Assembly: GCA_036172245.1 (NCBI GenBank) | Contig: JAYWIR010000064.1 | Span: 124,001 to 188,000 of the forward strand | Direction of reading: 5' to 3' | DNA length: 64,000 bases | From: Raillietiella orientalis | Taxonomy: Eukaryota | Shown: piece after piece, positions 1 to 64,000 of the stretch | Layout: the number at the start of each line of letters is the position of its first letter | How positions within the stretch are numbered: position 1 is the stretch's first letter | Translations under genes and position numbers: made by a program | Notes under the pieces: generated by a model | Databases searched by the model: none | The model's input: only the letters and a program-made list of their open reading frames with translations | Told to the model about the DNA's origin: nothing

Positions 1-189
1 TGCTTCACCCATGAAGTTGCAGTAGCGGAAGAAACATTCAGAGAAATGAAAACGCAGAGGTCGCCCATGGAAGACCAACTTTCCATCGCCACTGCCGCCG
101 CTCCTCAGCCGGAAAGATAATGCTACACGCGGCCGTCGTACATTCTTTCAAGATTTCTCCTCGTTACTGCTACGAGTAATAAGTTTCTT

Positions 190-1330
190 ACCCGATCACT
201 CCGGGACGTTTATTTTCATAAACCAGCTGGAAACATTTGTTTCCAGCCGACGACCACAAAAAAACAACGGAAATAAGCCACTGGCACGCAGGCCAGGAAA
301 ACGGTACGTGGAGGGAGGAGGGGACTACAAACAAAAAAGAACAGTCTAAATGGGAGGAAGAGGACAGGGATCTTTGGTGACGCTCCGTAGTCACCGGAAA
401 AGAAAAAGAGTGTAAGCACTAAAAGCATTACGGAGCGAATTGGAGGTGGGGCGCGAAAACAAAAATGAGATTAAAGGGGAATGGATGTGGATCACCGGGA
501 TCTCGTTCCAAACCGTAGATAATCCGGCTATGGATGCCGGTGAGTCCCTCCGTTGAATTTTCGATTAAGTGATGCTATTAGGCGCTGATAAAGTCGCCTG
601 CCTTCCTGGTGACACAACATCGCTGTCCACAGCTCTCCAGCACGTCTTTGACCGTGACGATGGCGCGGATGCAACCAACGGTCGAGATCATCGCTGCCGT
701 CGAAAGTCCTTGTGGTTGGAAGAATTGTCTCAGCACCTCACGAGCGGTGTCCTGTTGCAGGAGTGCTGCTGCCAATCACCTCCAGATTTCGTGGAGGGCT
801 CTGCAGTCCAAAAGAAGGTGCGGGAACGACTCCATCACCCCGCACCAGGCACAGTAGGGGGAAGCCACCTCACCGGAAACTCGGTTCCGCCGTTCATTGA
901 AGCGCAAACCGCAGTGCAAGAAGAGCAAAACGTCCTGCTTCCAGGCAAGGGGAAACACCGAATCAAACAGCAGGGAGGGACTATCAGTCCCTCGGGGGCA
1001 ACACCAACAGATTCTCTTCACCAAAGAAGTCCCTTTGCCGTAGCCCGAGCAGTGGCAGCATCCGCCAGCTCGCTCGTATCCCATTCGCCGAGTTTTCTTC
1101 TTCCCGCGATGGTGCAGGAGAACTTCCACCTCTCCGGATGGCTTCTGTCTCCTCTTGCCCTGAGGGCAAACAGTGCTTCGGCGAGGAGCGTAGCGGCCAG
1201 GGTGGAAAACTTCACCTCGTCATGCATCACCTCTTGAAGTGACCGAGGTAGGAATCGACACGGGGCGAATATGTTCGGAACGCATTTCCTGGAATCCAGC
1301 CCAAGAATCAACAGATTCCTGCCGCCAAGC
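190..1330 (-). mobile_element. Non-LTR retrotransposon (LINE) 3' fragment with zf-RVT zinc finger and T-rich 3' UTR
   Basis: ORF 776..1129(-) ends with YCAWCGVMESFPHLLLDCRALHEIWR, the CxxC...E..HLL..C..W signature of the LINE ORF2 C-terminus. An in-frame stop follows, then a T-rich tract on the minus strand. Confidence 0.75.
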
Positions 1331-1602
1331 ATTAAAGTTCATTGGGTGGCAGGAAATCCACAGTTGGGCTTCCAGCAGTGAGGCGACGAGTAATAAGTGA
1401 TGGTAACCAGAGAGAGCTTTCCCATACCGCTAGAAGATGAGGACTGTTCCTTGATCAAGTGGAGGGGTTCCGACGCGATGAAGGAGAGGGGAATTATGAC
1501 TATCCTACCAATTGTTCACCTCCGAGACTCAAACACAACAATGCCTTTAGCTAGCAAAACCTAGGTTAAAAGAATTGCTGAGGAGAGAGCTCGGTTGCGG
1601 AG

Positions 1603-1675
1603 GTGCACTGCCGGGATTCGAACCCGCAGCCATCTGTTCGGCAGAGGGTTTCACACCAACAAAGAGACCCCTACA
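1603..1675 (-). other. Degenerate tRNA-like unit (tRNA pseudogene or SINE head)
   Basis: Minus strand reads TGTAGGG...CTCTGCCGAACAGA...GCGGGTTCGAATCCCGGCAGTGCAC. It has a canonical T-arm/B-box GGTTCGAATCC, partial acceptor pairing and a length of about 73 nt. The D-arm and anticodon arm are degenerate. Confidence 0.45.
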
Positions 1676-3537
1676 CTCTTCCTCAACTTCCGCGCTGAAT
1701 CTCACCATTGCTCCCCATCCCACACATTTCGGCAAGAGTCCAAGTGTGCAGTCTTTCAGCACGTGCTCCGAGCGCGCCTGCTCGCCTGGACACACAGCCG
1801 GCCCATACGCGCAGATGGAGCTGCCGTCCGACCACGCACGGGCAGGACGACACTTCTTCCCACCGGCCGAAACCCCCACACCGAACACACACCCGCGACC
1901 GAGTCGAAGAAGCGCTCGCGCAGAGCGCGTTCCTCCCCCGCGCGCCAACCACCACGCGCTGCCGCAGACCATCAGCGAGTGTCGCTCGGCATACAAGGAG
2001 AACCTCCGACTAACGACGCACCCATCGAAGGACCGCCGGCACCGCGCCCCAAAGAGGCTTTCACCAGGGCGCGCGACGACGCTGCGAAACACGCGGCCGA
2101 CGACCGAGCGACATTCAGAGGTCGGTCTTCCTGGCGACGTGACTCGTCCGGAGAAAAAGCAGACGACATCTCGCGCTGCGCTCCGGCAGAAACCCAAAAT
2201 GGAAACGGAAGCCGTTCGAACTTTCGCTTTCGTTTTCAGGAACCCAGGAGCACGTCCGCGAGATCAGCGTGCGGGCGTGGCAGCCCAGGAACGAGGACGC
2301 GACGCCACAGCTGGCAGAGCACCGGGAGCGCTTCGCATTTCGAACTGGGGAGCTGCGAGCGAGAGACTGCGCGCGAAGAGGAAGGAGCACCACGGTTCGC
2401 GCAGTGCAGTCGAGCGGACGGATTCTTCAGGGTTCGTCGTCCGGACGACCGCAATCAACCGGGGGCCAGACGCCCACGGTTGCCGGCCGTACGTCACGCA
2501 GCCGAGCACCCGTCAGGCTCCCGTACGGCAGGCACGTGCGCTCCATCGGCTCGCCAGCCCTGCAGCCATCTCCTATTTGGATCCCCGTCACGACATTCCT
2601 GAAGGCCCTCCCGGCCAGCAAAGGCCCCGGAGCACACACTTGATCCCACGACGATCACCCTCGCTGGAGCTGAGGCCTCCTTGGAAACGGAGCGCAGGTG
2701 CCAATTGCCTCTTCTCTCAGCCCCGGTGCCGTTGCAGGAATCGTCCATCAGCCTTCCTTCGAAGGCAACGGGCGCGTTCAACCTCGACATCGTGGGCAGG
2801 CGGAAAGTCGACCTCCTCACCGTCGATTCCAAGCGGTCCCGTCGACTGTTCGCCACATGAGCAGTGCCGCAACCGTCTCCAGGCAGCCGGAACGTGCACC
2901 CCATACTCCCTCCCCGTGTCCAGAGTCACCGCTCGGTCCCACCCCTGCAGTGCGAGAACAGAAGCCAGAATGCGGCTGCGGAAGAGAGCGCACTCTGCAG
3001 GACTGCAGAGGGCGCTCGCCGCCGAGCGCACACCTACCGGACCGAAGCAGCGCCACCCATATAACGAGCGCTCACCGACCCACCCAGCGCACAAGAGGAA
3101 AAGGAGAAGCCTAGCCCCGGTACCACGGGGAACACCAGCGGAAGGGATCGCTCAAAGACTGGCTGAGTGTCGCAACCGACCGCAGGGACGCACGCAGCCA
3201 CCGTCCCGTTCCGGGATGCTGAGCGCGGTACACCCCTTTGTCAGCGACTACGGAGCCGTCCGGATAGGCCGCCCAATCGACGCAGGCTGAGAAAGAAAAA
3301 AAGAAAAAAGTCGCCACACTCGCGCGAGCGCACATCCTCCGATCCTCTTCCTGCCGTTGTGCCTCCTTCCTCTCCCGGTACGAAGGGGGGTCCGGCGTTC
3401 TCGAGCTCGTCGTGTCCAATCGGTCAAACAAAAAGGCACAAGGGGATGTCACCAACTGTACGCAGGAAGAGCACCATCACCAAAGCGCTCGCGAGGGCAC
3501 TTCGTTCAGGACGGGGAATGCCCGGAGGGCGCTCGAG

Positions 3538-3895
3538 AGCAGTTCTACAAGATCAACGTCACCTCTTCTGCAAGCGTCACCCAATCTGATGCTGGGGTCC
3601 GCACGATATTGAAGTTACTTATTTATACTCGTTGTGCCCATGTATAAACGCTGAGTATAACGCGGCATTAACATTGTTAGCAGCAGGATCAGCACCGCAC
3701 CTTAAGAGCAACCTGGCAACTTTGCTATTCCTGCAATAACACGCCCAGTATAATCACCGTTATCGTTTTTTCTGTTCGCATCAGCACCATGCTTCAGAGG
3801 CAGTTCTGTAATTTTGCTATCCGCGTTATGGCGCAAGCTACGTATAATATGGGCGAATAATGCAGTACTCGTTTGTATGTTAATATTAGGGTTAC
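3538..3895 (-). pseudogene. Ankyrin-repeat gene fragment inserted in LINE copy 1
   Basis: Translates across frameshifts as NINIQTSTALF...ITELPLKHGADANRKNDNG...LLLRCGADPAAN...YRADP...GDACRRGDVDLVELL. It is AT-rich relative to its GC-rich flanks. Confidence 0.82.
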
Positions 3896-6039
3896 GCCTC
3901 GTATCCGGGTCACGGTCGGAGCCCCCCTCCCCCGGGGAAGCGGGCCGCCTCCTCAGCGATCCCCGACTGCCCGTTCTTGCGAGCCACTCAGCCCGGAGTG
4001 CCTCGGCCATCCACTCTAGGCGGCAGCAGATCGGCTTCCTCTTCCCCTCTCCCTTTCCGTTGCGTCTTCCGAAGTAAGAACGGCCTGCGATGCAAGGAAG
4101 CCTCATCAGAGCAGGGGAATCGGAACCCAATGTCTGGACATTCGATTGCCCTGCCAACGACAAGTCCCCTTGACCAGCACGCCTCCATGCACTTTGCCCT
4201 CCGTCTCCTCGGCGGCATGCGCCGCAGACGAATGGGGACGAAGACCTTTGCCATCGGACAACACCCGTCGCTCCCGTACCGCCCACGACCTGCCCGTTAG
4301 ACGATGCGCTCCGCGGCTGCGCGCCCGGAAGAGAGCGCGAAGGCACGAAAGTAATACCGCACCCTTCTCCCCCCTTCCCGCAACGGAAGCGGGCCAGCTC
4401 CCGCGCTTGCCCCCGGCAGCTATCCTCGAGGCGCGAAGACACGTACGGGCGACGAGGGAGCACCAGCAGGCTCGAGGGCCGCGCGTGCCCTTCCTCGGCG
4501 ACGGACATGAGTGTCCCAGGTCTCGGGGAGAGGAACGATCGTGGAAGTTGGGGACAGGAGCGCAAAACACGGAATATTTGCAGACAAGGAAGCTGCGAAA
4601 ATCCCAGCAGAATCACAGACGGGCGCCACTCGCTGGCAAATCGCGGCAACGCCGAAGTAACAGCTCGGACCCCAGCTCCGCATCCACGCGCGCAGCCCCA
4701 GCGGGAAAAGCCGCAGGAAGGTCGCCACCTGCGTCCACGCCCCACCTCCGCCATTGCACGTCACGAACCAGGTCCTTCCCCCGATTTCCTGCCGAACAGG
4801 CAGTCGAGTAGGTCGAGGACACCTCCCCGTCTCCCGCGCTTCGCCTGCCGGCTTCCCTCTCCTTCTCCTCCACGTAATGCTGCAGGCGGGCGAGTCGGTC
4901 GACCGTGAAGAAGACGTTGCGGCGCTCGCAACGGGGCGGTAGTGCAACGCGCGGCATCAGGTCATCGCCGCCCGACGCCTCCTCCACCGGCCTCCCCGAG
5001 CTATCCGCAGTGCGGGATGTCCCAACTGACCCTACATATCACTTGCCGGACTGCAGCGCACCTTCAAGCAGCTGAGAACGAGCCCGCCTCCGCCACCCCC
5101 GCCGAATCCGGGAGGAACCGACACGGCCTCTGCGGGAGCGGCGGACTCTCGTCACGAGCCACCGTGACCAGCCGACGGTACGCTGCATCCGCGCCACCAT
5201 CGCAGCACGCAATGCGCCGGAGGCCCGGGAGCTGCGAAAGGAGGACACCCGCCTGTCCGAGGGTCACAGGCGGATCAGAGGTGCCTTTCGCGGACAGAGG
5301 AGCAGCAAAGGGGAGCGCCAGCACTCGACATCGCAACGACAAAGAAAAGAGCGCTTCCCAACTCCCCACTCCTTTTTGATTCCTGCGACGTACCCTCCCC
5401 TCCGCTGCTCATTTCCCACGGACACGGCACCCGTGCCACCGGCAGTCGTTCTCGCAGAACTTTTCTTCTCTTCTCCCGGGAACGGAGTTCCCAGCATTCT
5501 CCCGATCATCTTTTCCAACCAGCGACCCGCCGAAGTGACGGCGTAAGATACTGAACGCTCCACGCACCACTTCCTCATTCGCTGGCACGACAAGAAGTCG
5601 CTTCCACGGTCTTCCGCGCAGAAAGCGCGCAGCGACCTTCACCTACGCGCTCGCCTTCCGCTACGCGACACCCGCGAAGGCCACGCCTTCCCGCAGAGGT
5701 TCTCCGACGCACAGGCAAACGTTTTGCGTGCCCACCCGTGCGCACGTGCTGGCCTCAACCTTGCGCACCAGCACCAATGGCACTGATCTCACGGCCTATG
5801 TTCTTCCGCGCACGCGCTGATCTCTCTCCGGGTCGTCGTCGTCCGGTCGCAAAACCTGCGCTGCAGCGCTTTGCGTAGCCAACGCGGGAACGCGGCCGCC
5901 TCTTCGACGTGCTGCAGGAAACGCCGCCATCCGGGAAGATGGACGGACGGCCGCCGCGTGTGGTAGAGATCGAGGAGCGCGTAACAGTTTCGGCTCCGCC
6001 TAGGCCGCGGGGCGTCCCATCGGCGAAATCCTGCGCCAC

Positions 6040-7300
6040 CTGGAACCTTCGGCCGGAGGACAGCGGGACAGGCGATGCGCTACCTCCCGAGCCGGTGCGC
6101 AGGCGCCGCGGAGCTCGCGCAATTGCCGAATACTCGGCGACGGCGACCCTGCTGCGCGCAAGCGAGACGCGAGCAACGCGGAGGGCAAGCGGCAGCCTTG
6201 CCTCCGGCGACGGGAACGCCGCGGGTGCCGCGCGAGCGACGCAAGAAACCGCATGATCGCCGACGGAATGGTCCAGCAGCTGCGACGGGAAAACGGCCGA
6301 AAGCGTGTCCAGCTGCTCGCGGCGTGCAACCTCCGCGCACACGTGACGCTCGCTTGCACGCGCACCGGGCATCCCGGGACTACGGTGTCCGCGAAATCGA
6401 TCCGAAACATCCAGGACGAGCGCGAACCCGGTCACACGACTGGAGATGCGCTCCCCTGCAGCGTGCCAGGCAAGCGAGCTGCAGCGGGGGAAGGGGGGAT
6501 GCGCACGCTGCCCACGTCGAACAGCACACCGGAGCGTGCGCTCTCCAGGGGCGACCGGTTCGCGCTGCCGCGTGGACCACCGGCTGATTCACATCTCGCG
6601 TCCGTCGGACGGAGGCGCTCCGCCGACGGACGCGAGACGAGCGGACTCTTCCGCCGCCGTACACCGACGGACGAACTGCCGCTCCCTCCTTCGGCACTGT
6701 CCGCTGCTCCTTACCAGGTCGGTTACTGTCCCGAGGGAACGGTGCGCTGGTATCGCAGCCTCTTCCGGAGCGGAACGCGTCTCCCCCCTGGAGTAGGGGA
6801 CTTCTTGGGCGAAAGCAATTCCTCTTGCTTGCTCCCTGCTGCACAAAGAGGGCGGAGAGCACGCGAGCACGTGCGGGCCACGTGTGAACTTGAACGAGGA
6901 GCAGAAGAAGCGCCATCGTCAGAGGAAAGGTACGGTCGCAGAGAACTCCCACTTGTCGGCAGGGGGATTCGCCTGGAAGGAGATGACGGCGACGCATGCC
7001 GCCTCCACGCTCGACGCCTTCTTCCCTCCCTTTCCCGGTGTGGCTGCCCCTGGCGATTCCGTACTGCGCCGGAGACCCCCCCTGCTTGCCTGTACTTGCG
7101 TGCTGCCGTTCACGCTCGGAGCCAGGTGCTGTCGCAGCCGGCGGCAACTCACTCTGCCGGCGGCAACCGCAATCCGCCTCTCCGGCCCGACCGCGACTAC
7201 GCCGCGTGCAGCAACGCAGCATCTGCAGGCGCGGAACAAACGGCTACGCACGCATGCATCGGACGGGATGCTGACTCACCGGTGCACAACGGCGCCTTTC
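6040..7300 (-). pseudogene. Degenerate reverse transcriptase domain of LINE copy 1
   Basis: Mirror of 35636-36900; the motifs are listed under that feature. Confidence 0.68.
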
Positions 7301-10300
7301 CGCGACGGGAACGACCGCGAAGCATTTCGTTGCTGCTGGTGCTCCACCAATCCATGGTCTGCTTGCGTCCGCGAATGTTGCCCGAGGCGGGCGCTACCGC
7401 CACAACGTTGGACCGTTTTAACATGTAAGGTCCGAACAAGGTTCCAAGACGAAGGTCATCCGGAGGGCCGGCCCCCTTTTCCACGAGGCTTGAAACGCCG
7501 TGGAGCTGCGAAAGGGGCAGCAGCAAGCGGTTGGCGCAGCGCGCAAGCGACGGGCGGAGCGCGGAAGCGGCGCCACCCTGTTGCTGCGCACGCGGAGGCG
7601 CGAGCGCAACGCCAAGATACGTTTCTTGAGCGCAGGCGGAGAGGCGGACACCCGTGAACGGCGAGAAGCGGCCTGCAGACTCGCCTGCGGGTTCACTCAC
7701 CGCAGGTCGAGCAGTCTCACCGCGCGGATTGGCGAGCCGCGGCAGGCGGGCAGGAAGCGGAGCGAGCGGCCATTCCGACTGGTCACCGCACTCGACGGGC
7801 TAGCGGACGGCGCTGCGACATGCGGCCAGAGGACTTGAGTCGCCCTCGTCTGTTGGTGGTGGCGGTGGCCACGGGGAGGCCTACGGGGGTACGCCTACTC
7901 CCCCGGCACGCACGCGCTGACAAGGCGGCGAGTGGGAAACGGCAGCGAGAGATGCCGATGCTCGTGCGCCCGCACGTGGAGGCACGCGCACCGTCTCTGG
8001 ATAGGCAGGTGGGAGGAGAAACGCACGCCTTCCTCGTCGCGGTCAAAACCAGGATTGACCGACTGCACTCCCGCATTCCCAGCCTTCCTCCAAGAACGAG
8101 ACCTCCGACCGTGGAGCCGGCGGCCGTGCGTCCTTCCTCAGCAGCCACCCCCTTCCTCCTACCAACCCACTCCTCACGATAAAACCTTGGCCAGTGCGGC
8201 CCCCCGCTGCGCCTACTGCCGTCTTTCCCGAGGACAGAACACGGCGAACGCGAATTCGGGGAGGCGCGCCGCAGCCCGCGCTGCACGCAACACCCCGTCG
8301 GCGAGGTCGTGCCACGCCGGACGGAGCGCCCACCCAACGCATGCACGGATTGGTGCCGGTGGCCGGCGGCCGTTTTCCTCCGTGTCGACACTCTGTGGGG
8401 GTGCAGCCCGAAACTCAACGCCCTTTCATCCGTGCGCCCTCCCGCAAAGGGAACGCCGAAACGGCGGAGGCAGCCGCGTCGCGCGACGCACCAGGAGGCA
8501 GCAGCTGCGGTCGAGGCGCGCGAAGAGTGCAGAAGACGAATGTCCAGGCGCCCGCATCGTGGACGCGTTTCCGCTCTCCGGTCGCGGGCTGCACCTGCCG
8601 TCGGTCTCGGCCGATGACGCCGCTCCGACGGGGGAGCACTCCTCCTTGCGAACGGCGCAGCGCGGGCGCTGCAAGTCGCGCGCAGCATTGGCGACTCCCG
8701 GCGTCGAGGTGCGAGCGCCGTGGGAATCGCGCAAGAAGCAGGAGGTCCTGCAGCCACGGTTTCGCCCCCCCGGGTGCATGGAAAAACACCCCAGCGCTGT
8801 CCGGAAGTTCTCGTGCGGCACCCGACCGTGCACGCGTCGCCCGCATCCCTGCCCGAGGAACGTGCAGCCCCTTGGGCGAAGGATAGGAAGCTACCCCTCC
8901 CCCTCCAATGTGTCTCAGACGCAACAGGGACGGCGGGAAGCTTCGTCGCGGGCGCATCTAGCCCGAGGTCCGAAGGCGTGCCTCCCCCTGCAGAGCAAAG
9001 CGGACCGTCCGCATCGGAGCGGATGCCAAGGCAGCTCGTGTCACAAACGCTCTCCCGTGTTCCCTGGGAAGGGCACTCGCGAAACGGATCCAGCGACTCG
9101 CTTCTGCACCCCTTCCCTGCCGAGCGATCCTCCACGCCCACCGGAAGCGGGAATGCGTTCGGCTGGAATCCTCGCTGCTGTGCTCAGCGCCGGGAGCGAT
9201 ACCGTTTGCTGCTCCAGCAGCCTGCGAAGCGTATGGCGGTCGACGCTCCGTGTTCGCCTGCCGACGGTCGTCCATCGCAACAAAGAGCGCATCTGCCTCC
9301 CTTCCGCAACGCCACGGATGGCCTCTCGGGAACGGCAGAGTGTTCCGTGAAGCCCTCGGACGGTGTCGCTTGAGCGCCATCGCCGCGGCAGCAGCTCGAG
9401 TCGGAAGCCGACAGGCTAGCGTGCGGAGATGGGGAGCGGTCGGCGCGGGCGAGCGCGCGAGTGCCGCCTCTTTCACGGACACGCAGGCAGACGTGCTCTG
9501 CGGCCTCCGAGATCGCTGTGAGCGTTCGCGTCGCCGTGGGAGACGTCCAGCGCCGTGAGCGCGGCCGAGGACAGCACGAGATGCTCGGCACGCGCTCGAC
9601 GACAGGCGACCTGGTCGAAGCTCCCCACTCCACGCTCCAGCACACGTCTATTTCTTCTTCCTCTGCCGCGTGTCCTGCCGACCACCGCACGGCCCTTCCC
9701 CCTTCGGGCCATTCTTCGTTGGTTCGTTCCTCTCGGCGCTGCGCACGAGCCGCGCTCCTGAGCCGGGCGCACAGTGGCCTCCCCTGGCGCAAGAGTGTGT
9801 GCGCGCGTTCCCGATGTGGGCGAGTGCCGCCTGCTTGGCGAACGAGTCGGCGGCGGCAAGAGGGCGCTTCCCGCTTTCGATCGCGCGCTCGCCGTCCGGG
9901 CAGTGTCACCTCGTCCGTCCGCAGGAAGATTGGCGTGGCGCTCTTCTGCCGAACGACGGGCGGCTTCAGTGTTCCCGTGGGGAGACGCTTGGGGCATCTC
10001 CGCAGAGAGCGGCATTGGGCAGGCGTCGTGGCGACGAGCACGCAGCCGACGGAGATGCCGAGTCTCGCCGCTCGCCAGTTTCCGCTTCCGCTCGGAGATG
10101 GCGCTGCATTCGTCTGTCGGCGGATTGCCGAGCGAAGGGAACAAGGCGCAGCCTTCCGGACCCCGCAAGCGAAGAGGCCCTTCCGCATCAGCGAAGCGAT
10201 CCCGGATCGTTTCGGAACCGTCGTGACAGACGCGCGAGTCTGCAGAGGGTCGGACCGCCCCTCGCATCAGCAAACGCTCACGTGTAGCCGCCTCCCCCCC

Positions 10301-13300: not shown

Positions 13301-13759
13301 CCAGCCGGTGCGCAGGAGGTGGGGGATGCGTGCGTGCACGTGGTGAGGTCGTAGTCCGTGCGTGGCGCACTTTCGCTACCACGGAGATGAAGGGGGTCGC
13401 GTGTCTCTTCCGTCCCCAATCGACGCCTTCTTCGACAGTTCTTCTGCTTTGTGGTCTCAGCAACGGGAATCCTGAACGTTCCTGGAAATTCGACGGAATC
13501 CGTGCCTATCGTTCTTTGATTGTACTGCTATTTCCCGCTCGCACAAGTCTTCGGTGTGCGTGTCATTTTCGCTTTCCGGACCACGGACGCACTGACTTGG
13601 TCAGTGGAGAGTTTTTGCCTGTCGCTGTCTGCCCTTTCATTTTCACGTTGCTTGAGTGCCGTGTGTTTTCTTTGGTTGCACCTCGAAGTGTCTTCAAGGA
13701 AGGAAGGAAAACGGTTGGTGGTCAGACTTCAGTATTCTCAGTTCTGTGCAGGCATGTGT

Positions 13760-16630: not shown

Positions 16631-16639
16631 CGCCTGCGA

Positions 16640-17475: not shown

Positions 17476-17639
17476 ACTTCCAGGTGGACTCAGTGTCCGC
17501 CCAGTCAGTCTCCTGTCTTGCCTATGAGGACTGACATCAGGCCACTCGAGTCGTCACTATGAGCTTTAAGTTGGCTCTGTGAGGCGTCTACGTCTACTTT
17601 CCCCAATTTTCGGTGAGATCCATGAGTTGTTGCGCGTTT

Positions 17640-22685: not shown

Positions 22686-22687
22686 CC

Positions 22688-23176: not shown

Positions 23177-23179
23177 TGC

Positions 23180-49779: not shown

Positions 49780-50370
49780 TCGGGGAAAACACAAACAAAA
49801 AAACATGAAAGTACAACAAGGGTGGGGGAGGTGTTTCGGGGGAAGGAAGGGCAGGGAGGGGATCACTGTTCGCGGAGAGATATCCTCTTTATCCTGTACA
49901 GGATATCCCAACAAGTTGCGCCCTCACATTGCGTAAGTGGAACCAACGGGATGCGGTCTTCAAAAAGAACCGGGTCCAATGGATGGCATCTCTGCCATTC
50001 TGGCTTCTTCTCGATGTGTTCCAAGCCGCCACGATTCCACGAATGGAATAGAGAGCTGCCAAGACCGCGGTCGGAAGCAGAGCGGCACGCATGGTAAGGC
50101 TCTTAAAAATGCCTTTGGTTCCGCCTTCGGGGATGTCTAGAATCATCTGTCGACGATTCCAGAGGGGTCGGAGGGCAGCACAGTCCATCAGAAGATGCGG
50201 CAGAGTTCTTTGACGCCGTACCTTTCGCAGCGGGCATCCACATTTCCTCGTGTCCAGAGAGAAAGGCGTGCTCTGCTTTGGATTCCCCAATGCAACACTA
50301 GCAACGCTGCCACTTCCTCCTGCCATTTCATGAAGAGGTGCCACTATCCCAACATGCTGGGGGGCCACTT
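49780..50370 (-). mobile_element. LINE 3' fragment (zf-RVT), same family as 49040-49570
   Basis: LDTRKCGC...TLPHLLMDCAALRPLWNR...SIRGIVAAWN in ORF 49889..50368-. Confidence 0.8.
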
Positions 50371-50399
50371 CACCTCCTCGTTTTGTGCACGTGGTAGAA

Positions 50400-51430
50400 T
50401 GAAGTTTTTTTTTTTTTTAGTATTCGTGTATTTTTGTTATTACATTCAATGATGAATGCCCCTGCAAAACCGGGTGAGAAAGCTGCATTTCAAGAGCTCC
50501 TCGTTCTGGAACTGAGCTGTGGTCATCCTGAGTACTGCGACCGAAAGGACAGTTCTTCCATCCATATGATGTCCTGCACTGTGCTGGAAGCGGCGCTGGT
50601 CATTCGTAAATCCTGTTTTCTTTCGTGGGATACCCACGGCGTCTGCTGTCAGGGATTTGAAATGTTCCACGGAGTGAATCTCGTCCACGTCTTTTTTTTC
50701 GTCCGAAGCTGCCGCGCTGGGATTCCCGGAGCCTCCCGCTTGGGCGGAGGGCGATGCCTGGAAACTCTCTGCTCCGCATCCGTCCCAAAGTACTCACGTA
50801 CCTCCGAGAGCCGATTCGGAAGCGTCCCTTCCCGTTTCAGATACGCGCCTTGGTACTTAAGGCTAGGTGGTGGCGAAATATGGGAGGGAGAGGAAGCAAT
50901 GCATCTCCGTCTGCAATCCAGAGCTTCGTTTCCTGGGGCTAAGATGGATCCTTGAGCGGCGTAGGTTTTTGCCACCACCTCTGCATGACGTTGACGTCTG
51001 ATGACGTTGGTTTGAAGCTACGCATTCCACCTGACCATCAAGGTGACCGAAATCCATTGCTGGGAGAACACGCACTGTTTCCGGTTCCTCCTGCCATTTG
51101 TTTTCCAGCTGCTCACCTTGCGGGACGAACCGAAGGACCTGTTTTAGTCGGATGCTGTCTTTTTTTGAAGCCGTTTCGCGACGCCTCCACAGCGGTGCAT
51201 GAGGTTCCGTCTGACACGCATTTCTTGTCATCGGACCCTCCGTCCGCTTCCTCAAACTAAATGAAGGGCATCCGGATGAGGGCTTGAGGGCGACTGCAGC
51301 CCCAACGCCCCTTGCGGAACGAGGTGAAGGACTCTCTGAGGTGGAGTGAGGGCTAGCCCCCGGGGAGGGGCTACTTGTCATCTTCATGCCAGAGGAAAGA
51401 AGAGAGCTACGGTCCGAGGGCACGAAGTGG
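50400..51430 (-). mobile_element. RT remnant ending in an A-rich tail
   Basis: Motifs in order: VPQGEQL, GHLDG (YLDD-like), LRRSRIHLSPRK (L...GL.LN..K-like), LKYQGAYL (KYLG-like). The T-run at ~50405-50418 is poly(A) on the minus strand. Confidence 0.6.
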
Positions 51431-53369: not shown

Positions 53370-54890
53370 TAAATAAATAAATAAAAAACATTACAAAGGT
53401 GGTAGGACCACCGGTCCTATCACGTCCTGACCAGCAAGGCTTGCCGAGAATTCAGTGTCCAGACCGTGAGGATGGCCTCGACAACAAAGGGGAGAGAACA
53501 AAAGATAAAAATAAAAATTTGATAACTTCGGGGAGAGCGGGAAGGATCACAGCTTGCTCAGTCCTTCCTCTGCTTCCTCTCGAGGACTCCAGCAAGCTTC
53601 TTATGGATTTTCTTTCGGTGGGATCGTCACTTTGTTCTACACAGAAAGCGCAGAGCGAAGTGGACGCGTCCCTGGAGCTCCCTCTTCCATTGGCGTGGCT
53701 CAGGCTGCTGCACTCCCTCGCAGGCGGCAAAGAGCTGCTGGGTTTGCGTCTGGTAGCAATGCATCCCGCACGAAGAGGGGTTTCCTTCCGTCTCTGGGAT
53801 TGCAATGCGGAGTCGGTCGAGTCGTCCCTACAAAACATCCACGCAACGGTCACAAGGCAACGCAGTCCACGAGCAGGTGCAGAAGGGATTCACGTTCCTC
53901 CCACCTGCTGCAGTCTAGGTCCACCGCCCTCCCCCTGCTTCTAGGGAAGTCTAGTGGCCCGATGCAACAGGAGGATCGGCGATTCTTGCCACTTGAGAGT
54001 GGAAGCGCGTTTGTTCAGGAGCGCTGAAGACCACTCAAGATCCTTTCGGAGAATTCTCACCCCAACGCACAAGTCCTTCTGGTAGGAGACCTGGGATCAC
54101 AGCGTCTATCAGCTGACCTGTGGCCTAACCATCTAGTGGCCTACACCTGAATTTGATGTCACAGGTGACTTCCCAGTTTGCCAGTAGGTTGCTGCCAACC
54201 TGCTTCCCTCGAGGAGGGCAGCGCCGCGGCAAGGGAAGTTCTTTCTGCCCAAGCACTTCTTGTGGGATGCACGCTGATCTTCTGGAGCAAGAAGATGTCG
54301 CAAAAGGAGTGCAGCAATCGCTGCTACCATAAGTCTGGACTCAGCTCATCGATCTCCACCCACGTGCGAACGGTTTTCTGTAATCAGACACTACCGTTCA
54401 CGGGGCAGCAGGAGGTCCAGGTGTTCTCCTTGGTCAGTTCAACCACTCGCCGTAGTTGGATGATGATTTCCCATGATGGGACACGTTGCGGGGGCGCCGC
54501 GCAAGGAAAGAAGAGAGTCCTTCGCAGCTGCCTCACCAGGAGGTATGCCGGTTAGCACCAGTTGGTGCTCCGGTGTTTCTCCACGGGCCAAAGGTTTTCC
54601 ATGGAAGCTGCCGCTTCAGACACTCCAGCGTGAGGAGGTTGAGACCACCATAGGGGTCTCGGCCTTCTGACACACGTCCTTCAAGCGGACTCGGGATTTC
54701 ACGATCAGGATGCTGTCACATCGCTGTCCGCATACGAAGAGAGAAGCATTTCACCAGCAGGGCGCCTTCTTTTGGTCTGCTGCTCGAACTCCGCTGATTG
54801 TGTTAATCCAGGGGGAGGCAATCAAGGATTTTATTGCTCACTGCCTTCTGAATTGCTGTGACGCTCTTCCTGAGGATTCTCGGGAATTTC
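53370..54890 (-). mobile_element. LINE 3' fragment (post-RT, zf-RVT, TTTA tail)
   Basis: SRVRLKDVC...GGLNLLTLE at ~54620-54700; DCSRWEERESLLHLLVDCVAL at ~53855-53915; (TTTA)n end at 53370-53390. Confidence 0.78.
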
Positions 54891-54999: not shown

Positions 55000-57900
55000 C
55001 AAACCGCCACTGAAGCATTTAATTAAGGCCGTTTGCAAGCCGGCGACTATACTTGCCCGACCTACCTATAACTTGGTACGTGAGCGCAGGATACGTACCA
55101 GATGACATCTGGAAAGTCCTGACCGTGGATGTGCCGTCCAATCGAAGCTAAGTTTACATTTTCGCTTCTGGAGAAGCAGGATCAGGGAGCTGGGTCAGAT
55201 TCAGTATTTCCACCTTCTTTACTATTCTCTGACTGAAAAGAGCATTTTAAGTCACTTTCCAAATGTGCTCCACTTCTTTCTTAGTCCTCGTGCTTGCTTC
55301 GCTTCTGACCTAAGTAGTAGGGCGCCTTCAAATGCTTCCTAGAGGTTCACGGAGACCCCACCAATAGATTTAGATAAATTCACCAGCATTTAATGACAGC
55401 TTCAGCATCGCAATACCATTTGGCACTCGTCGATCTTAACGCTGCCCTAAAACTTCTGGAAGTTCCTGCAGAAGTTATGGACACTCCGAAACTTCTATAC
55501 AACCTATTTGGCACTTCCGGAAGAATCATGCTCCAGATTCGTGAGGGTTAATCTGAAAACTGGAACGATCATTCCTGTGTTGGGGTCGTGTACAAAAACT
55601 ACCAATTTTTGGAAAACTGTTTTCCCTGATACTATCCGAATGATTGATCTAATATGTGGGTTTATTGAGGGTGGCATAATGTCGGTTTTCGTTCCTCAAA
55701 GGTGTCAGCCAGAGCATACGATCACTGTCTATCACTGTTTAAATGACGCAAAAATTTACAGAGGTCGACCGGTTTATCCCAAATAAAAAGCATGATTTTA
55801 TTAATCTAGGAAATCTTGGTTGGATTTTCCAATCCAAATTGGAGATCACTGCTGCACAAAATGAGATGAAATGTTTCCGGCTGTTTGCCAACGAAATCCT
55901 CTACTCGGCGATTCCTCTTGTACTTCAGAGGAGTTCCAATTTGGCCCCACTTCTTGAGTTCTTCTCAGCCAACGCTTCCTTCTTACTTATGTCCGCCCTT
56001 GCTGGAACTGATAATCACTGTAATCCCGTCCTTCTAACAAAACCCTGGCTTGCAATCCATCCCACTGCTGCTTCAGTAAGCAGCATTAGTCTAGCTCATC
56101 ATCATCTTAATGCTGTTAATGAATATGTGTTTATTCATTTCACAGTATTCGTGAGTCGATTTATATTGTGTCGCGGAAGACTTCGTCGAGCTTGTTGTAG
56201 AAGAGGTCTTGAATGATGCCAACGTCACGGATATTTTGAACTTTGAGCTTCAAGAAATAGGTTTTGATCCACAGAGAGCGAATCAATGTCAATTTCTCGG
56301 CCAACAGGCACAGAAGACGAATCTAGTTGGCAACTACATCTTGAGTTTCCAAAAAGTCACAGTGCAAGGTCCGATGATAAGTTGATACAAGGAAGCTGCA
56401 AATTGATATTCCGATGATTCTAACGTTTGTCAAGGATGGATCCTGTAGGTCCTCCGGCTTGCCACGTTGCAAGACGTGCTCAGTGTTATCCGTGAGGACG
56501 TAAGATTCAACTCGGCAACCTGAAGTAAAGGCAGACTTTCATTAATTCACAAACAGCTGGCTCCCTGGAGGCTGGGAAATTCAAAAGCAAGGAAGGAGGC
56601 GAGCAAGGTTCGAGTTCCTTTACCGAAGAAACTTTAAATGCAAGAAATCCTGCTTTCCTCAAAGGGAGGCATTCTCGTGGTAGAACAAATTACTCATCCA
56701 CAGTGGTGTGCCGTCTTGGGTGAATTGGCAAGAAAGGGCCTATACAAGAGACGGGACGCGACCACATATGTCCTCAGATAAAAGGAAGGCAAAAGGCAAA
56801 CTTGAAAATATCAAACATTCACAGATTCCTCCCCGAAAGAGCAAGGCATCGAAAATTCCTCACAGTTGTTTTCGCAGCGTGATTAGCTTCGATTTCAGAA
56901 GAGCGGTCCAGATTTGCAGAATCCGGAAGGTTGCAAGCAAGCCGCGAGCTTCCCCAGGAACATCGAAACATGCTGTTGCATGTTTCGATGGTTCACAGGA
57001 TGAGATTTCTGACTTCAGATCTCGAGACGCTGAGAGCCTCGACCGAATGGAGGACCGTTTAAAAGTGAAGATTTGCTGTTGCCACTCGAATGAAATCAGA
57101 CGAACTTCCATTCGGGGTTGCTAGCGCAGATGTTCACAAACAGTACGGATTGAAATCACAAGAAGGCGCACTTGGAACACCCGCCTCGGATAAAATTTCC
57201 CTTCCGAGAGCTTTTTCCATCTAATTACTCTTTAAGCGCTCTGTTTTGAATACAAAGTAAATACACCAGTCTAAGAAACACTGTGGTGGTAAAGAGGCGG
57301 TGGAATGATGGGGAACTCCTGCAAACTGATCACTGGCATAAAGCAACTCATTGAAGAGCCAGAAAGACTCATCCTTCGCCAATTCCTGACCGCTACGTTT
57401 ATTCGCATTACTTCTGGGTTGCAGAAAAAAGGGAACGCTCGAAGAACGTGAAACCGTGCGTTTTGCGTTTTCCTTTTCCGATTTCGTAGTCAAATAGATG
57501 AGCTCACCATACTTCCATTCCGCTAACTCCTATTATACCTTGTTTGCTGACGGATCCACTGCAGGCATCCGCTTCTCAGGCCTACTTCCGACTCTCCCTA
57601 TTCGTAAGAAGTGACGCAGCTCGTGATTCATCCCCCAGTCACAAACTGCTGAACTGCCGATCTATCGCGCAAATCGTTCTCGCTTACAGCCAGCTAGAAA
57701 TCCTTTTGCGGAAAATCTTTGGTTTCATGTCTCACTACTTCGATCTTCCCCAGAAACTGCTGAGTTTCCGGGATGACCCAGCAGTAAATGGCTCAGTAGT
57801 TTTGGAATCTCTGTTGCCGTTGTCAGACCCGATGTGAGCGCATCTACTTCTTCGGCTTTCCCCAGATACCCGAATGCAAACAGAGCATGTTATTTGACTC

Positions 57901-59899: not shown

Positions 59900-60660
59900 T
59901 TCGGAGGCTTTGTGGTTGAGGCTTCCGCGCGTGGCACCGTGCGTCGCGGGTTCGAATACTCCGCAGAAACTGACGCCACTTCGTCGTTGGGTTCCGAGTT
60001 TCTCCTCCAAGATGGCGCTGGTTGGCCGAGGCATTCGGGCGTGGCACCGGCAGTGGATTAAGCCGGGAGGCCCCTGATGAAGGCCGGAACAATGGGAGTC
60101 GACCTTCGGGTCCTCCCAGGAATCAAGGAGTCGGGAGTTCCCCCTCCTGTCGTGCAATGGAGAGCGGACCCCCTCCCCGGGTGACCCCACCGGTTTCAAG
60201 ATGGAGCAGGAGCCTTCACAGGCACCTCTCCAGTTGTTCAAAGGAGCGGACCCCCCTGCTGCGGGGGGGACCCTCCGAGTCGTCGCCTCTTCACAGAGTG
60301 TGCACAAGGAAGCAAGCGAGAGCGATTCCCTGCGGGAAGCTGCAGCGCCCCTTCTGAATTTCGGAAGCGTCCCTTGGGGGTTCTCTTCAGTGGAGTGAAC
60401 AGGAGCGGTTCCCTTGTGGGTTCCCTCCAGAGAAGAAATTCCTACTAGAGGATCCTTTCCGGGTTCCCTTCGGAGAAGATGAAATGGAGAGGACAGCCCC
60501 TCCCCATTGGGGGTTGTCCCTCCAGAGAGAATGAGGAAGGAGATTCTCTTCGGAGACAACCAGGGTGGGAGATGCCCTTCCTGGATTCATAGGGCGTAAC
60601 CCCCTTCCGGGGTGCCCCCTATCTTGAGGAATAATCACGTCACCCGCGAAGGGTGCGTGT
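59900..60660 (+). mobile_element. tRNA-headed SINE-like repeat, copy 2
   Basis: Head AGGCTTTGTGGTTGAGGC...GCGGGTTCGAATAC (~59905-59960). The body is highly similar to the reverse complement of 16670-17475, with two internal deletions. Confidence 0.6.
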
Positions 60661-61899
60661 TCTAGAATTTGCTGCTCTTTCGCAATTCTTAAAGTTGCAC
60701 CGGTAGTGGAGTGATGGCAGCTTTGATCCCTAAGGAAAAAGATTCTAGGAATCCACTCCGCCAAGGGTGTTTGGTGTTTGCGTCTTTATCACCTCTGCAA
60801 GGTATTTGGTCACGTCTCATGACAACTAATTGCTAGCCTGATTTATTTTATGCCGAGTTTTGTATATACAGCAGTGATGGCTGCATGCAATTATTCAAGG
60901 GAGCATGGGGTCGCTAATAATTTCCTGCGAGCTGCTACAGTATGGGCGTGACTAGACAAACTCTTGTCTTTACTTTGTTATTAGTCTATATAGGACTTCC
61001 GCCATTCGGATGAATTCTTTAAGTATTCTAATTGATTTTTGCGTAGGGAAACTTAATAATTGACAGCTCAGTGTAATCTACTAGATAAAATTCTCTGATC
61101 TTATATGGAATTAGCAGAACTCGAGAACAACGCGAAAAAGAGCCAAGACGGAGCGAGAAGACCGAGGAAGAACTTCGGGGCGTGTGTGCGTATCGGGTTC
61201 GTTCCTGACCACGCCCTCTGCAATTCATGCGTGCTTAAAATAATTCTTTTAACAGCAACTGGTGCTGCGTTCCTCTTCTAGCCCCTTCATGAAAAACTGA
61301 GAAGCTAACGGAGAGGCTAATTACAGTTGCCCACTGCTCCTCCTGAAGTACCGGGTCCACTTCACCCGCTTCGTGTCTCAGCAAACCAACACTCCGACGG
61401 TTCCAGCCTTCTCACGTATTGGGTGCCCAGAAAATGAATTCGAAGGGTCAGGGCTGCTTCGCGCTTCCCACTGAGGGATAGAAATCTGTCTTTGGCTAAT
61501 TGCACTTGTACTACTGGCTATCATCCTCTAATGGGTGAAATTCAAATAATGCCCTCCCCCTCCCCTACAGCACGTGATTCCCCTTACCAAGCAGCAATTC
61601 TTCCCGGAATTCTTACTCCTCTTTTTTTTTCTTACAACTGTCTTCTTTACTTTGATCTTAGCCAAAAGGCCGAGAAGCGAAAAGATCAAAGTGCAGATCA
61701 ACAAACTTGCAGGTATTGTAGAGCCCTACTGTCGCAGCTGTGTGTACTGTCCCAAATCTGCCCCAAATAAAATCTGTTCTTATCAGCTCAACATGTGATA
61801 CTCCACCTATCTGGCGGCCAGAATATTAAGCTACTTTTTTGGAAGTGGACGGCAGGTTCGCTCCTCTCCTGTCCCAGGTTGACCCGGACTGGCAGCACT

Positions 61900-62340
61900 T
61901 CCGGGATCAACTGCCTTCTTCGGTCAGTAACTGACGTTGGGCATCGGACCCCTCCGCAAATTCAGTTCATCTCATCACATCAGCACGCGATCTTCGCGCT
62001 GTAAACAAAAATTCTACAGATGATCAGCAGCTGCGCACCGTGCCCTGCAAACATTACTCACATCATGATTAGGGTCACCTAGGTGTTCTCTTTGAACTGT
62101 GTTGTCCTCTTGGGGAGATTCTGTTCCTAGATTCTAGGATCTGCGAAGCTGTGGACGCATGTTTGAAACTGGCTATGAGGCTCCCCCCAAGAAAATCTGG
62201 CACTGGCTGACCTATGATTGATCTCAGCCGTGGGAAACGTTTCAAGAGAAAAGGCGATTTCTTGACATGAGTCAAAAAACCGCTGCTCAGTGTGTGATCA
62301 TCATCGATGGTTGAACCTTTGTTCACGTGCATCTTCCTTC
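61900..62340 (-). mobile_element. Possible LINE endonuclease remnant
   Basis: FLGGSL (GGDFN-like), RSRADV (SRID-like) and VTDR (SDH-like) in order on the minus strand. Weak. Confidence 0.28.
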
Positions 62341-64000
62341 AAAGACGGAAATCCTATCTCGAGGGCTGATGCATTCGACTTTATACTCGCTATCTCTCGA
62401 TAATTAATTTTTACTGCAGTCTATAATCATAACAGTTCAGTTCTATTGGATTAGTAAGATTAGTAGGAAGCGTGGGATTACACGATCGTTGAGAGGCGAA
62501 TGAATTATTTCTGGAAGAATGCAAAATTCTACACTTCTATCAAATATTCAGCCATGAGGAACGAATGACGCAATTTAACTCAAAATTCATGCGCTGCTCA
62601 AGCGATACCATCTTTACTCCAGCTGTAAGCTAAGAGGAAGCACGAGTCTGATGGTATGAGAATGAGATGTTTCCATGGTAGCGAATTCTCCCTTTTGATG
62701 AATACAATCTGGAGAAAGCTATAAATTGGTGGGAATGTAAAAGAGATTGATAGGCAGCTAGTGAAACGTTTTATTCAAACCCATGCAAAGCATCCTTCCT
62801 CGCAGCCATTGAGTCTACTGCCCCGTTTCGTATTTTGACTTGACATGTGCTAGACTTGAAAGCAAAATAGGATTTCACTTCTGTACAGTCCCAAAACCAA
62901 GCTGCGGTTACACACAGTAATAATGACTTCCGAATCCATAAAACTCTACAGTTTCGCTAATCAGTCGGCGGTTTTATCAAAAACCTATGATTTCCTGATC
63001 ACGAGATTGCTTACAACAACGGAACCAGCAGAAGAATTGCGAGATAAGGGGCTCAAACGAAGTCATCCGGTATCGGAGAACTTGGTTTCAGCTTTCGATA
63101 ACACCAGATTCCATGGCTACTAAGTAATAGAAATCCTGCTCTCGAGAAAGCGCCCCCTTCCCCCCCCCCCCCAAAAAAAAAAAAAGAAAGATAGAAAGGA
63201 AGGAGGGAAGGAAGGAAGCAAAAACACGGGGAAGGAGAATCGACTCGATCTCGGTCGCTTGGCATATCCGGCAATCAAGGAAAGCTTCACATATAGATTG
63301 CAGCCGTCTATCGAAGGCAAACCAAGGGGGCATTGGACGGAATCTCTCAAGAGATCGCAGCATCCATTCTAGCTTGACATTGCGACAAAGTTGTCTGTCT
63401 CCCGAGAAGAAGGCACTCTGATCCTAACGTCCAGGAACCACAAATTTTTGAGCGTTCAACGGAAACTTGAATGACTCATTGCGAAGTGTGGAGCATCAAG
63501 ATATTTGACTCCTAAAGAAAACTCGATCACCCGAGTCGAAGATATTCAAACTTGAAGGAGAATTTCGTTTTTGCCTTTTTGCTTTGCTGACAGCACAAAG
63601 ACCGATATTGTCAGAGTCTAAAAAAAACATGGCTACCATAACGAGCGGGAAGAGGACTCCGATTTTTTTTTGTGTGTGTATTCAAATGACTTTTGAAACC
63701 TCACATCCAACACATTTTTGTGACCTATAAAGGCAGGGTTTTTCCAAACGGCGGAATCTAAATCTAATCTAAATCTACAATATCTGTAAGAAAACAAATT
63801 TTGTTGGTAGTCGTATCTGTTAGCTTGCTTCTTACAACGTCACCAATGGAATAGCTCTATGCTTATGAGACCTTGGAAACCAATCAGACAGGAATAAGTC
63901 TAAAGATTCTTGCAGATGGTTTCTTATCATTCTTCAAGCACTTCGTTGTTGCGTCTAAGACTTCAGAGGGGTTTTCCCATCTTGATGTTTTTTTTTTTTT

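Follow-up and report, generated by a model that had tools for sequence, protein, structure and literature searches.

Closest described systems

Nuclear Wolbachia insertions are pieces of Wolbachia DNA that genomes of arthropods and nematodes have acquired by lateral transfer. Large palindromes, as characterized in the cited accounts, have inverted arms longer than 10 kb that flank a unique spacer and match each other at above 99% identity, the arms being kept alike by gene conversion (10.1101/800185, PMC3723533, PMC8981503). Drosophila hpRNA endo-siRNA loci are inverted repeats that form long dsRNA if co-transcribed (PMC10317233, PMC10292708), and Drosophila flamenco-like unistrand clusters hold TE fragments mostly on one strand and no genes (PMC10643416, PMC11400887). 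FlaHMM recognizes the latter by one-strand content of Gypsy-family/LTR (endogenous retrovirus) sequence (PMC11400887).

A flamenco-like cluster is expected to give a single long Pol II transcript, with its TE fragments overwhelmingly antisense to it, and 24-32-nt piRNAs from one strand. An hpRNA locus is expected to hold its inverted repeat within one transcript and to yield Dicer-dependent 21-nt siRNAs directed at a homologous target gene.

The window (the whole 64,000-nucleotide stretch of DNA analyzed here) is gene-poor and holds a 12-kb inverted duplication whose two copies are nearly identical, along with a few decayed retroelement pieces and two fragments of Wolbachia genes. The reading offered in an earlier note would make it a candidate master locus for transposon control in an organism other than Drosophila. 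Most of the evidence for that reading dissolves, because the retroelement pieces are few, their strand bias is not significant, and the rule that every plus-strand piece has a minus-strand partner is explained by duplication.

Like the flamenco-like clusters (PMC10643416, PMC11400887), the window carries its TE fragments mostly on one strand and lacks genes; unlike them, it has no Gypsy/LTR sequence, only about 8% TE DNA, a non-significant bias, and a transcript and piRNAs that are hypothetical, and it includes a large internal palindrome, which is not a known feature of such clusters. Its inverted repeat would give long dsRNA under co-transcription, as at hpRNA loci, but its arms are non-coding and their ORFs offer no recognizable coding target. 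Arms of 12 kb with a 15.6-kb loop are also much larger than hpRNAs as generally described.

A 12-kb inverted duplication

The duplication and its spacer comprise the following parts:

1652-13643, no orientation: left arm (self-alignment boundaries; clean homology begins near 1672)
29286-41277, no orientation: right arm, the reverse complement of the left arm
13644-29285, no strand: spacer of 15.6 kb, GC 41-54%, in which two Wolbachia fragments and a relic of the arm family lie among LINE/SINE remnants
22348-22671, plus strand: diverged GC-rich arm relative (67% over 324 columns against arm positions 12399-12679)
3620-3870, minus strand: ankyrin-repeat-like fragment with stops, AT-richer (GC 44%), embedded in the left arm

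The arms are 99.0-99.1% identical across about 12.0 kb, and the duplication makes up 37% of the window. With 12.0-kb inverted arms and a unique 15.6-kb spacer, the structure falls within the palindrome definition and resembles mammalian sex-chromosome palindromes as the cited accounts describe them, whose arms likewise exceed 10 kb, are at least 99% identical, and enclose a unique spacer. GC in the left arm is 57-68% by tract, with CpG o/e above 1 and TA o/e of 0.41. The two arms differ by 85 mismatches and 24 gap events in 12,012 alignment columns, these differences clustering near 1.65-2.0, 3.6-4.0, 6.1-6.35, 9.5-9.7, and 12.7-12.95 kb; gapless tracts of 3167, 3007, and 2090 nt between these patches score as 100% complementary. 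The arms are a mosaic of 2-3-kb tracts at 100% identity and patches at 87-95%. This mosaic is compatible with gene conversion, although long-read assembly polishing could also yield it.

In being GC-richer than their flanks, and in an identity pattern that fits multi-kb conversion tracts, the arms again resemble mammalian sex-chromosome palindromes. They differ from these in that they lack protein-coding genes, and with them the gene family that serves as a criterion there, that the host is invertebrate-like, and that gene conversion would here be read from the identity pattern. The GC excess is also larger: primate X palindromes show 4-5 points (PMC8981503), the arms here about 18.

No coding signal was found in the arms: none of their 117 ORFs matches a Pfam family, GC1, GC2, and GC3 are equal, 3-periodicity is absent, and the translations are junk-like, rich in arginine, alanine, glycine, and proline. 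An Rfam search of the arms gave no match, and they contain no internal repeats, LTRs, or TIRs. A non-LTR retrotransposon, which should leave RT/endonuclease coding remnants and a 3' tail, was considered as the identity of the arms and rejected on the 117 familyless ORFs and on a LINE profile that gave no hit in the arms at i-E<1; weak tblastn hits that might have indicated LINE relics are non-collinear and were set aside as noise. The arms are without any retroelement feature and are not orientable.

The diverged relative at 22348-22671 is inverted with respect to the left arm (12399-12679) and, equally, direct with respect to the right arm (30253-30533). A mirror copy of the ankyrin-repeat-like fragment occupies about 39060-39310 of the right arm, and the left-arm copy has no significant match in the one Wolbachia genome searched (best E 0.068).

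Retroelement remnants and their orientation

Recognizable LINE/SINE-derived DNA amounts to about 5.3 kb (8% of the window). It is made up of a single RT remnant, LINE 3' fragments numbering five or six, a pair of tRNA-headed SINE-like copies, and one tRNA-like piece:

668-1338, minus strand: zf-RVT-like remnant of a LINE ORF2 C-terminus, probably truncated at its 5' end (profile match 761-955, i-E 2e-5)
1575-1671, minus strand: tRNA-like piece abutting the left arm end, with an exact B-box-like motif at 1614-1627
16674-17476, minus strand: SINE-like element of about 800 bp (self-alignment)
17851-18645, minus strand: RT remnant of non-LTR/LINE type, interrupted by stops, the sole RT in the window (profile i-E 5.9e-37; 3-periodicity)
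24943-25083, plus strand: weak, inverted LINE C-terminal fragment adjoining the 25.5-kb copy (protein-level E 8e-5)
25452-25973, minus strand: LINE ORF2 C-terminal remnant (profile i-E 1e-8; also 4e-31; zf-RVT E 4e-4, sub-threshold)
49012-49506, plus strand: LINE C-terminal remnant, tail-to-tail with 49848-50454 (self-similarity)
49848-50454, minus strand: LINE C-terminal remnant (self-similarity; 50206-50454 at 1.3e-3)
53515-54024, minus strand: weak, co-oriented relative of the 50-kb LINE fragment (E 4.7e-6, found in antisense frames)
59901-60632, plus strand: inverted second SINE-like copy, at 95% identity to 16674-17476

Among the 350 ORFs of at least 70 aa, the second arm being left out, Pfam gave three hits, all sub-threshold. 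The only retroelement-related one is zf-RVT at 25547-25786 on the minus strand (E=4e-4, under the cut-off). As no family matches beyond these three were found, the window holds no recognizable host gene. Families of LTR-type RT, integrase, gag, and RNase H are all missing from these 350 ORFs, and LTR-like direct repeats are absent. A tblastn search with 150 RT-containing proteins produced 141 HSPs, 140 at 17878-18645 and one at 25613-25699, all on the minus strand and none on the plus strand; LINE ORF2 profile matches are restricted to 761-955, 17851-18495, and 25610-25846, again on the minus strand.

At E<=1e-3, 965 proteins of the library match the RT remnant, the best of them at 1.6e-12. 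The remnant at 668-1338 is related to the 25.6-kb copy by self tblastn (E 4e-13 and 5e-16) and falls in Atlas zf-RVT clusters (0.95-0.97). Neither the fragment at 24943-25083 nor the comparison of 53515-54024 with the 50-kb LINE fragment yields a DNA-level match. The SINE-like element at 16674-17476 starts, at the 5' end, with a tRNA-like head; a 13-nt unit that is repeated twice marks the 3' end. ARAGORN makes no tRNA call on the piece at 1575-1671, whose motif count is weak when taken alone, since 13 of 100 shuffles likewise reach three motif matches.

Where about 20 orientable retroelement remnants had been counted by eye, profiles and self-similarity yield 10 orientable TE-derived pieces. 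The minus-strand excess described as strong keeps its direction but is not significant: seven pieces lie on the minus strand and three on the plus strand (two-sided binomial p=0.34). This tally covers neither the arms and their relic nor the captured fragments, and about 34 kb of unannotated non-arm DNA may hold further co-oriented remnants. Profile-level hits alone are 3:0 minus. Adding the captured fragments gives 11:4 (p=0.12). The excess among these few pieces is within chance, the numbers being too small for significance.

The four plus-strand pieces singled out in the same note do exist, very nearly where it placed them, and each has an inverted relative in the window. The largest pair is the 12.0-kb inverted duplication itself (29286-41277 against 1652-13643). 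Another is the LINE pair 49012-49506 (plus) and 49848-50416 (minus), whose translations are 44% identical across 113 residues (E=1e-18) and whose DNA is 70% identical across 104 nt. Such partnerships follow almost automatically from an inverted duplication and a handful of repeat families. By-eye orientation counts on decayed DNA require a species-specific repeat library.

Wolbachia-derived fragments and other debris

Five further pieces were identified outside the retroelements:

22499-23171, minus strand: Wolbachia-derived fragment, internal part of a 1188-aa Wolbachia protein without family assignment
27889-28205, minus strand: fragment of Wolbachia glpX (class II fructose-1,6-bisphosphatase) that covers residues about 29-130 and is spread over three reading frames
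45477-45958, minus strand: degenerate eukaryotic LSU rRNA fragment (model positions 956-1444; 64.8 bits against a gathering score of 50)
61754-61920, plus strand: U2 snRNA-like pseudogene (54 bits)
61608-61681, minus strand: weak, inverted U2 piece (E 0.021)

The core match of the first fragment, 22679-23171, is 79-84% identical to Wolbachia genomes at the nucleotide level, and the stretch out to 22499 is weaker. At the protein level it is 67-69% identical to Wolbachia proteins (72-75% in another comparison, with three loci), and its frame remains open for 174 aa (22691-23212). The second fragment was identified as glpX by FBPase_glpX (2.8e-118) and TIGR00330, with 76-77% nucleotide identity to two Wolbachia genomes over 27922-28205. 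Both lie in the palindrome spacer, with LINE/SINE remnants within a few kb. Judged from their sequence and from the assembly, in which they are contiguous with eukaryotic DNA, the two pieces qualify as nuclear Wolbachia-derived insertions. They resemble known insertions of this kind in being short fragments of 76-84% nucleotide identity amid eukaryotic LINE/SINE remnants, one of them frameshifted; unlike these, each is only about 0.3-0.7 kb, about 155 kb separates the source loci in the reference Wolbachia genome, and one retains an open frame of 174 codons. Wolbachia-derived DNA in a palindrome spacer is one of the modest points that are left. The rRNA fragment contains a 28-nt tandem repeat.

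Alternative readings of the window

At the sequence level, we found no sign that the window is a small-RNA master locus, and a flamenco-like cluster is not favored. A unistrand piRNA source would make a long plus-strand transcript, running antisense to the two Wolbachia fragments and the majority of the LINE/SINE remnants, that is processed into piRNAs, with the palindrome adding hairpin dsRNA and siRNAs. The 7:3 orientation, the 3:0 profile-level hits, and the minus-strand position of both Wolbachia fragments and the rRNA fragment all point in this direction, but the bias is not significant with or without the captured fragments. The window does lack recognizable genes, and the LINE C-terminal ORF looks metazoan, which makes a Piwi pathway plausible; however, recognizable TE remnants cover about 8% of the window and a single non-coding duplication 37%. 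The one-strand Gypsy-family/LTR content that is the hallmark of flamenco-like clusters (PMC11400887) was not found within the window, whose sole RT is of non-LTR type. We consider such a source unlikely. That a read-through transcript would fold into long dsRNA is a physically sound proposal, given 12-kb arms that are 99% complementary; it presupposes a transcript that is hypothetical.

Alternatively, a plus-strand host gene might contain the window within a long intron or a non-coding transcription unit. Selection against sense LINEs would then produce a mild antisense excess, and transcription a strand-asymmetric composition. Intronic LINEs show an antisense bias, and the minus-strand LINE/SINE excess here is mild. 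Of the 37 1-kb windows outside the arms, 28 have more T than A on the plus strand (nominal p=0.003, adjacent windows not being independent), a skew that a plain junkyard reading does not predict. However, the skew does not track the orientation of the annotated elements, and none of the 350 ORFs is exon-like with a family match, so that we regard this as distinctly improbable.

We give as little credence to an assembly artefact, in which the inverted duplication would be a misplaced haplotype or repeat copy and its mosaic a product of consensus polishing. Perfect multi-kb tracts interrupted by short patches rich in 1-3-nt indels, with 24 gap events in 12 kb, are what polishing might leave. Against this, 15.6 kb of unique complex sequence separates the arms, whereas fold-back read chimeras normally have no spacer, and the outer flanks of the two arms differ. 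GC-rich DNA continues about 350 bp past the duplicated part of the right arm, to about 41630, while the left copy stops at the adjoining tRNA-like piece; the junctions therefore look real and distinct.

A combined reading, in which a gene-converting palindrome forms the core of a small-RNA source, is very doubtful. Such a source would make, from a plus-strand read-through transcript, antisense piRNAs against LINE/SINE sequences and the two Wolbachia genes, its arms, at about 66% GC through biased gene conversion, forming a long hairpin that feeds siRNAs. If this did hold, piRNAs against two Wolbachia genes would amount to an endosymbiont memory kept in small RNAs.

The alternative offered in the earlier note, nested insertion in one orientation at a centromere or subtelomere, would suit a repeat-rich, gene-poor stretch with debris of several origins but is highly improbable given a single RT remnant, no satellite array (one TRF row at score >=80, 10 short rows at >=40, none above 73 bp), no run of >=3 units for five telomere-type motifs on either strand, and no element seen inside another in the window.

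Formation of the window

On balance, we favor reading the window as a gene-poor, probably low-recombination and heterochromatin-like stretch of an invertebrate-like genome that accumulates junk, belongs to a lineage that has hosted Wolbachia, and carries a palindromic segmental duplication. This reading builds on the observed anatomy, the non-coding arms, the Wolbachia source of two pieces, and the low number and orientation of the retroelement remnants. Old LINE and SINE insertions, mostly 5'-truncated, would have decayed in place, and DNA and RNA debris (two Wolbachia gene fragments, the rRNA fragment, and the U2 pieces) would have been added. Inverted duplication, possibly by fold-back or template switching, would have produced the palindrome with its non-coding GC-rich arms and its spacer; the smaller tail-to-tail pairs may share this origin. 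The near-identity of the arms may be due to arm-to-arm gene conversion, or the duplication may be very young. A large palindrome in an invertebrate-like genome whose non-coding arms lie about 18 GC points above their surroundings could serve to test GC-biased gene conversion outside mammals.

A Large Palindromic Duplication

The window is an ordinary region of repeats and debris that carries a notable palindromic duplication as well as two fragments derived from Wolbachia. It contains no N bases and is bimodal in composition, with blocks of 60–70% GC at ~2–13 kb and 30–41 kb set in surroundings of 41–57% GC. Both GC-rich blocks contain the same sequence, inverted relative to each other (1652–13643 vs 41277–29286), 99.0–99.1% identical over ~12.0 kb; we refer to the two copies as arms and to the DNA between them as the spacer (13644–29285). 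The left copy ends near 1672, abutting a tRNA-like piece, and beyond 41277 in the right copy the GC-rich DNA extends for another ~350 bp. At the inner arm ends, similarity fades over a few tens of bases.

Besides the arms, only two repeat relations are found at the DNA level, 16674–17476/60632–59901 and 22348–22671/12399–12679. The second of these joins the arms to a diverged relative within the spacer (the arm relic, 22348–22671), which is 67% identical to its arm counterpart and, at 67% GC, as GC-rich as the arms; its orientation is inverted with respect to the left arm and direct with respect to the right. The presence of this relative indicates that the arm sequence is a member of an older repeated family.

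The arms are inverted, longer than 10 kb and at least 99% identical, and they flank a unique spacer. In the published accounts (10.1101/800185, PMC3723533), large palindromes homogenized by gene conversion have arms of >10 kb, at least 99% identity and a unique spacer, a definition that the arms and spacer described here fit. A MAFFT alignment of the arms spans 12,012 columns and contains 85 mismatches (49 transitions and 36 transversions) and 24 gap events; under BLAST scoring the same pair has 61 mismatches and 37 gap openings. The differences cluster near 1.65–2.0, 3.6–4.0, 6.1–6.35, 9.5–9.7, and 12.7–12.95 kb, in divergent patches of 200–400 bp with ~87–95% identity and many indels of 1–3 nt. 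The tracts between clusters (3167, 3007, and 2090 nt) are gapless and reported as 100% complementary. Such a mosaic would not be expected from uniform divergence and could have been produced either by arm-to-arm gene conversion or by consensus/assembly polishing.

The GC excess of the arms is ~18 points, against 4–5 points over the flanks in primate X palindromes, for which the equilibrium GC is given as 61% (PMC8981503). This excess could be a mark of long-standing biased conversion. The GC of the divergent patches is not consistently below that of the identical tracts, so the patch comparison lends no support to GC-biased conversion. Moreover, both the relic in the spacer and the extension past the right arm are rich in GC, which suggests that the arm sequence family had a high GC content in any case.

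Content of the Arms

In the earlier note the arms figured among the retroelement remnants, a reading that their content contradicts. The arms are non-coding, and a Pfam search with the 117 ORFs of 70 aa or longer from the left arm and the flank to its left returned no family at E ≤ 0.01. Arm ORFs reach 641 aa, a length due to composition, with a TA observed/expected ratio (o/e) of 0.41 and stops making up ~1.1% of the codons in each of the six frames. GC1, GC2, and GC3 are equal, 3-base periodicity is at background level only, and the translations are junk rich in arginine, alanine, glycine, proline, and serine. No collinear LINE protein traces or internal repeats were found in the arms, and their ends carry neither direct nor inverted terminal repeats (LTR/TIR). 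CpG o/e is >1.1 in the arms vs 0.6–1.0 elsewhere.

An origin from rDNA was ruled out, as neither rRNA nor any other Rfam family was detected in the right arm (E ≤ 0.1) or the left arm (E ≤ 0.5). A bacterial or plasmid/phage origin was likewise rejected, with no match in plasmid and phage collections and no codon periodicity. The left arm includes an ankyrin-repeat-like fragment with stops (3620–3870; 44% GC inside an arm of 65% GC), mirrored at ~39060–39310; its presence in both arms indicates that it predates the duplication or the last conversion. A Wolbachia source for this fragment is not supported by the one Wolbachia genome searched, where the best match (E 0.068) was not significant.

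LINE and SINE Remnants

Summed from the coordinates of the feature list, recognizable retroelement-derived DNA covers ~5.3 kb, which is 8% of the window. For the 350 ORFs of 70 aa or longer that lie outside the second arm, Pfam gave three matches, all under the curated cut-offs; the sole relevant one is zf-RVT at 25547–25786(−) (E = 4e-4), and those to DUF6939 and Relaxase_M look like noise. A six-frame translation of 1–3000 yielded no Pfam family. Because Pfam was judged too insensitive on short fragments, having overlooked an 81-aa reverse transcriptase (RT) fragment at 18268–18510(−), local profiles were used.

RT motifs occur in minus-strand translations near 18 kb. At a threshold of E ≤ 1e-3, the read-through of this region, with X at stops, matched 965 proteins of the library, the best at 1.6e-12; RVT_1 was present in all eight of the long proteins scanned, endonuclease families in three, and a weak zf-RVT in one. 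A tblastn search with 150 of the 965 proteins (E ≤ 1e-3) produced 141 HSPs, 140 at 17878–18645(−) and one at 25613–25699(−), with none on the plus strand; relaxing the threshold to E ≤ 5 gained only scattered noise. A profile built from 28 full-length proteins matched only 761–955(−), 17851–18495(−), and 25610–25846(−), and jackhmmer started from a 147-aa LINE C-terminal ORF found 779–1219(−), 25625–25825(−), and 50206–50454(−). This ORF falls among metazoan zf-RVT clusters in the Atlas; a homologous-protein search with it and with the RT read-through gave no matches. Self-comparison of 766 peptides adds weaker relatives at 49012–49506(+), 53515–54024 (in the orientation of a minus copy), and 24943–25083(+).

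The window also contains a SINE-like element of ~800 bp with a tRNA-like head, in two inverted copies 43 kb apart that are ~95% alike, 16674–17476(−) and 59901–60632(+). The 3' end of the minus copy consists of a 13-nt unit present twice, and a search with the tail motif for further 3' ends returned its own two copies and two 2-mismatch matches only. A third B-box-like motif lies at 1614–1627(−); since three motif matches were also attained in 13 of 100 shuffles, the number of motifs is by itself weak evidence. No tRNA was called by ARAGORN.

Orientation of the Remnants

Orientable retroelement pieces in the window

668–1338, minus, orientable piece
1575–1671, minus, orientable piece
16674–17476, minus, SINE-like
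17851–18645, minus, orientable piece, RT
25452–25973, minus, orientable piece, LINE 3' end
49848–50454, minus, orientable piece, LINE 3' end
53515–54024, minus, weak
49012–49506, plus, orientable piece, LINE 3' end
59901–60632, plus, SINE-like
24943–25083, plus, weak

This tally leaves out the arms, which are not orientable, together with the arm relic and all captured fragments (the Wolbachia, rRNA, and U2-like pieces described below). The ratio of minus to plus is 7:3 (two-sided binomial p = 0.34), or 6:2 without the weak pieces (p = 0.29); with the captured fragments included it is 11:4 (p = 0.12). We could not reproduce the earlier count of roughly 20 remnants with all but four on the minus strand, for which a 16:4 split would give p = 0.012. 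Poly-A/T tails were rejected as a proxy for orientation, since homopolymer runs of at least 8 nt are balanced (nine A-runs vs nine T-runs). On the plus strand, T exceeds A in 28 of 37 1-kb windows outside the arms (13644–29285 and 41631–64000); this skew does not track annotated element orientation, so it is unusable as a proxy.

The observation that each of four plus-strand pieces has an inverted relative was borne out, at nearly the same coordinates, and carries little information. One of the four pairs is the duplication itself, and the piece at 22.3 kb is related to sequence present in both orientations, so an inverted partner is inevitable. The piece at 49 kb belongs to a LINE 3'-end family with several minus copies, and both members of the SINE-like pair come from a single family.

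Three inverted pairs lie close together. Two LINE 3' ends stand tail to tail, separated by a few hundred bases (49012–49506(+)/49848–50416(−), 70% identical at the DNA level), a second, weak pair of this type is found at 24943–25083(+)/25452–25973(−), and two U2 pieces are inverted at 61608–61681(−)/61754–61920(+). From their arrangement, these pairs may reflect recurrent local inverted duplication, or else independent insertions or insertion into each other's tails.

A small-RNA locus, as had been proposed by analogy with flamenco, is an improbable though possible reading, and no measurement made here supports it. Flamenco-like clusters are recognized by Gypsy-family content (PMC11400887), and it is on this content that the comparison fails. 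For the alternative placement at a centromere or subtelomere, no support came from satellite or telomeric repeats, of which the window has none.

Captured Fragments

An open ORF of 174 aa and 35% GC at 22691–23212(−) is 67–69% identical to Wolbachia hypothetical proteins and 72–75% identical to translated loci in two Wolbachia genomes and a Rickettsiales MAG, with nucleotide identity of 79–84%. This fragment directly adjoins the arm relic at 22348–22671. A second segment, 27922–28205, is 76–77% identical to both Wolbachia genomes. A search of the window with 4909 ORFs from a single complete Wolbachia contig of 1.44 Mb matched only these two places, apart from a cross-match of RT with the LINE remnant at 18.2–18.4 kb. 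The first piece (22499–23171(−)) corresponds to residues 747–982 of a 1188-aa protein with no assigned family and the second (27889–28205(−)) to residues 29–130 of glpX, frameshifted across three frames; in the reference Wolbachia genome, ~155 kb separate their source loci. No Wolbachia similarity was found at the DNA level in 1–20000 or 41000–64000. Phage WO was rejected as the origin of the Wolbachia fragment, the phage collection giving no match.

Rfam identified a degenerate LSU rRNA fragment at 45477–45958(−) (model positions 956–1444, 64.8 bits) and a U2-like pseudogene at 61754–61920(+). Within the LSU rRNA fragment, a 28-nt unit is repeated in tandem for 2.6 copies (45717–45789). An ORF of 157 aa with an ATG start and weak 3-base periodicity is located at 55743–56213(+); it contains no Pfam family, and its best Atlas score was 0.78, with nothing recognized. 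Taken together, the Wolbachia fragments, the captured RNA pieces, and the metazoan-type LINE ORF point to an invertebrate host of Wolbachia.
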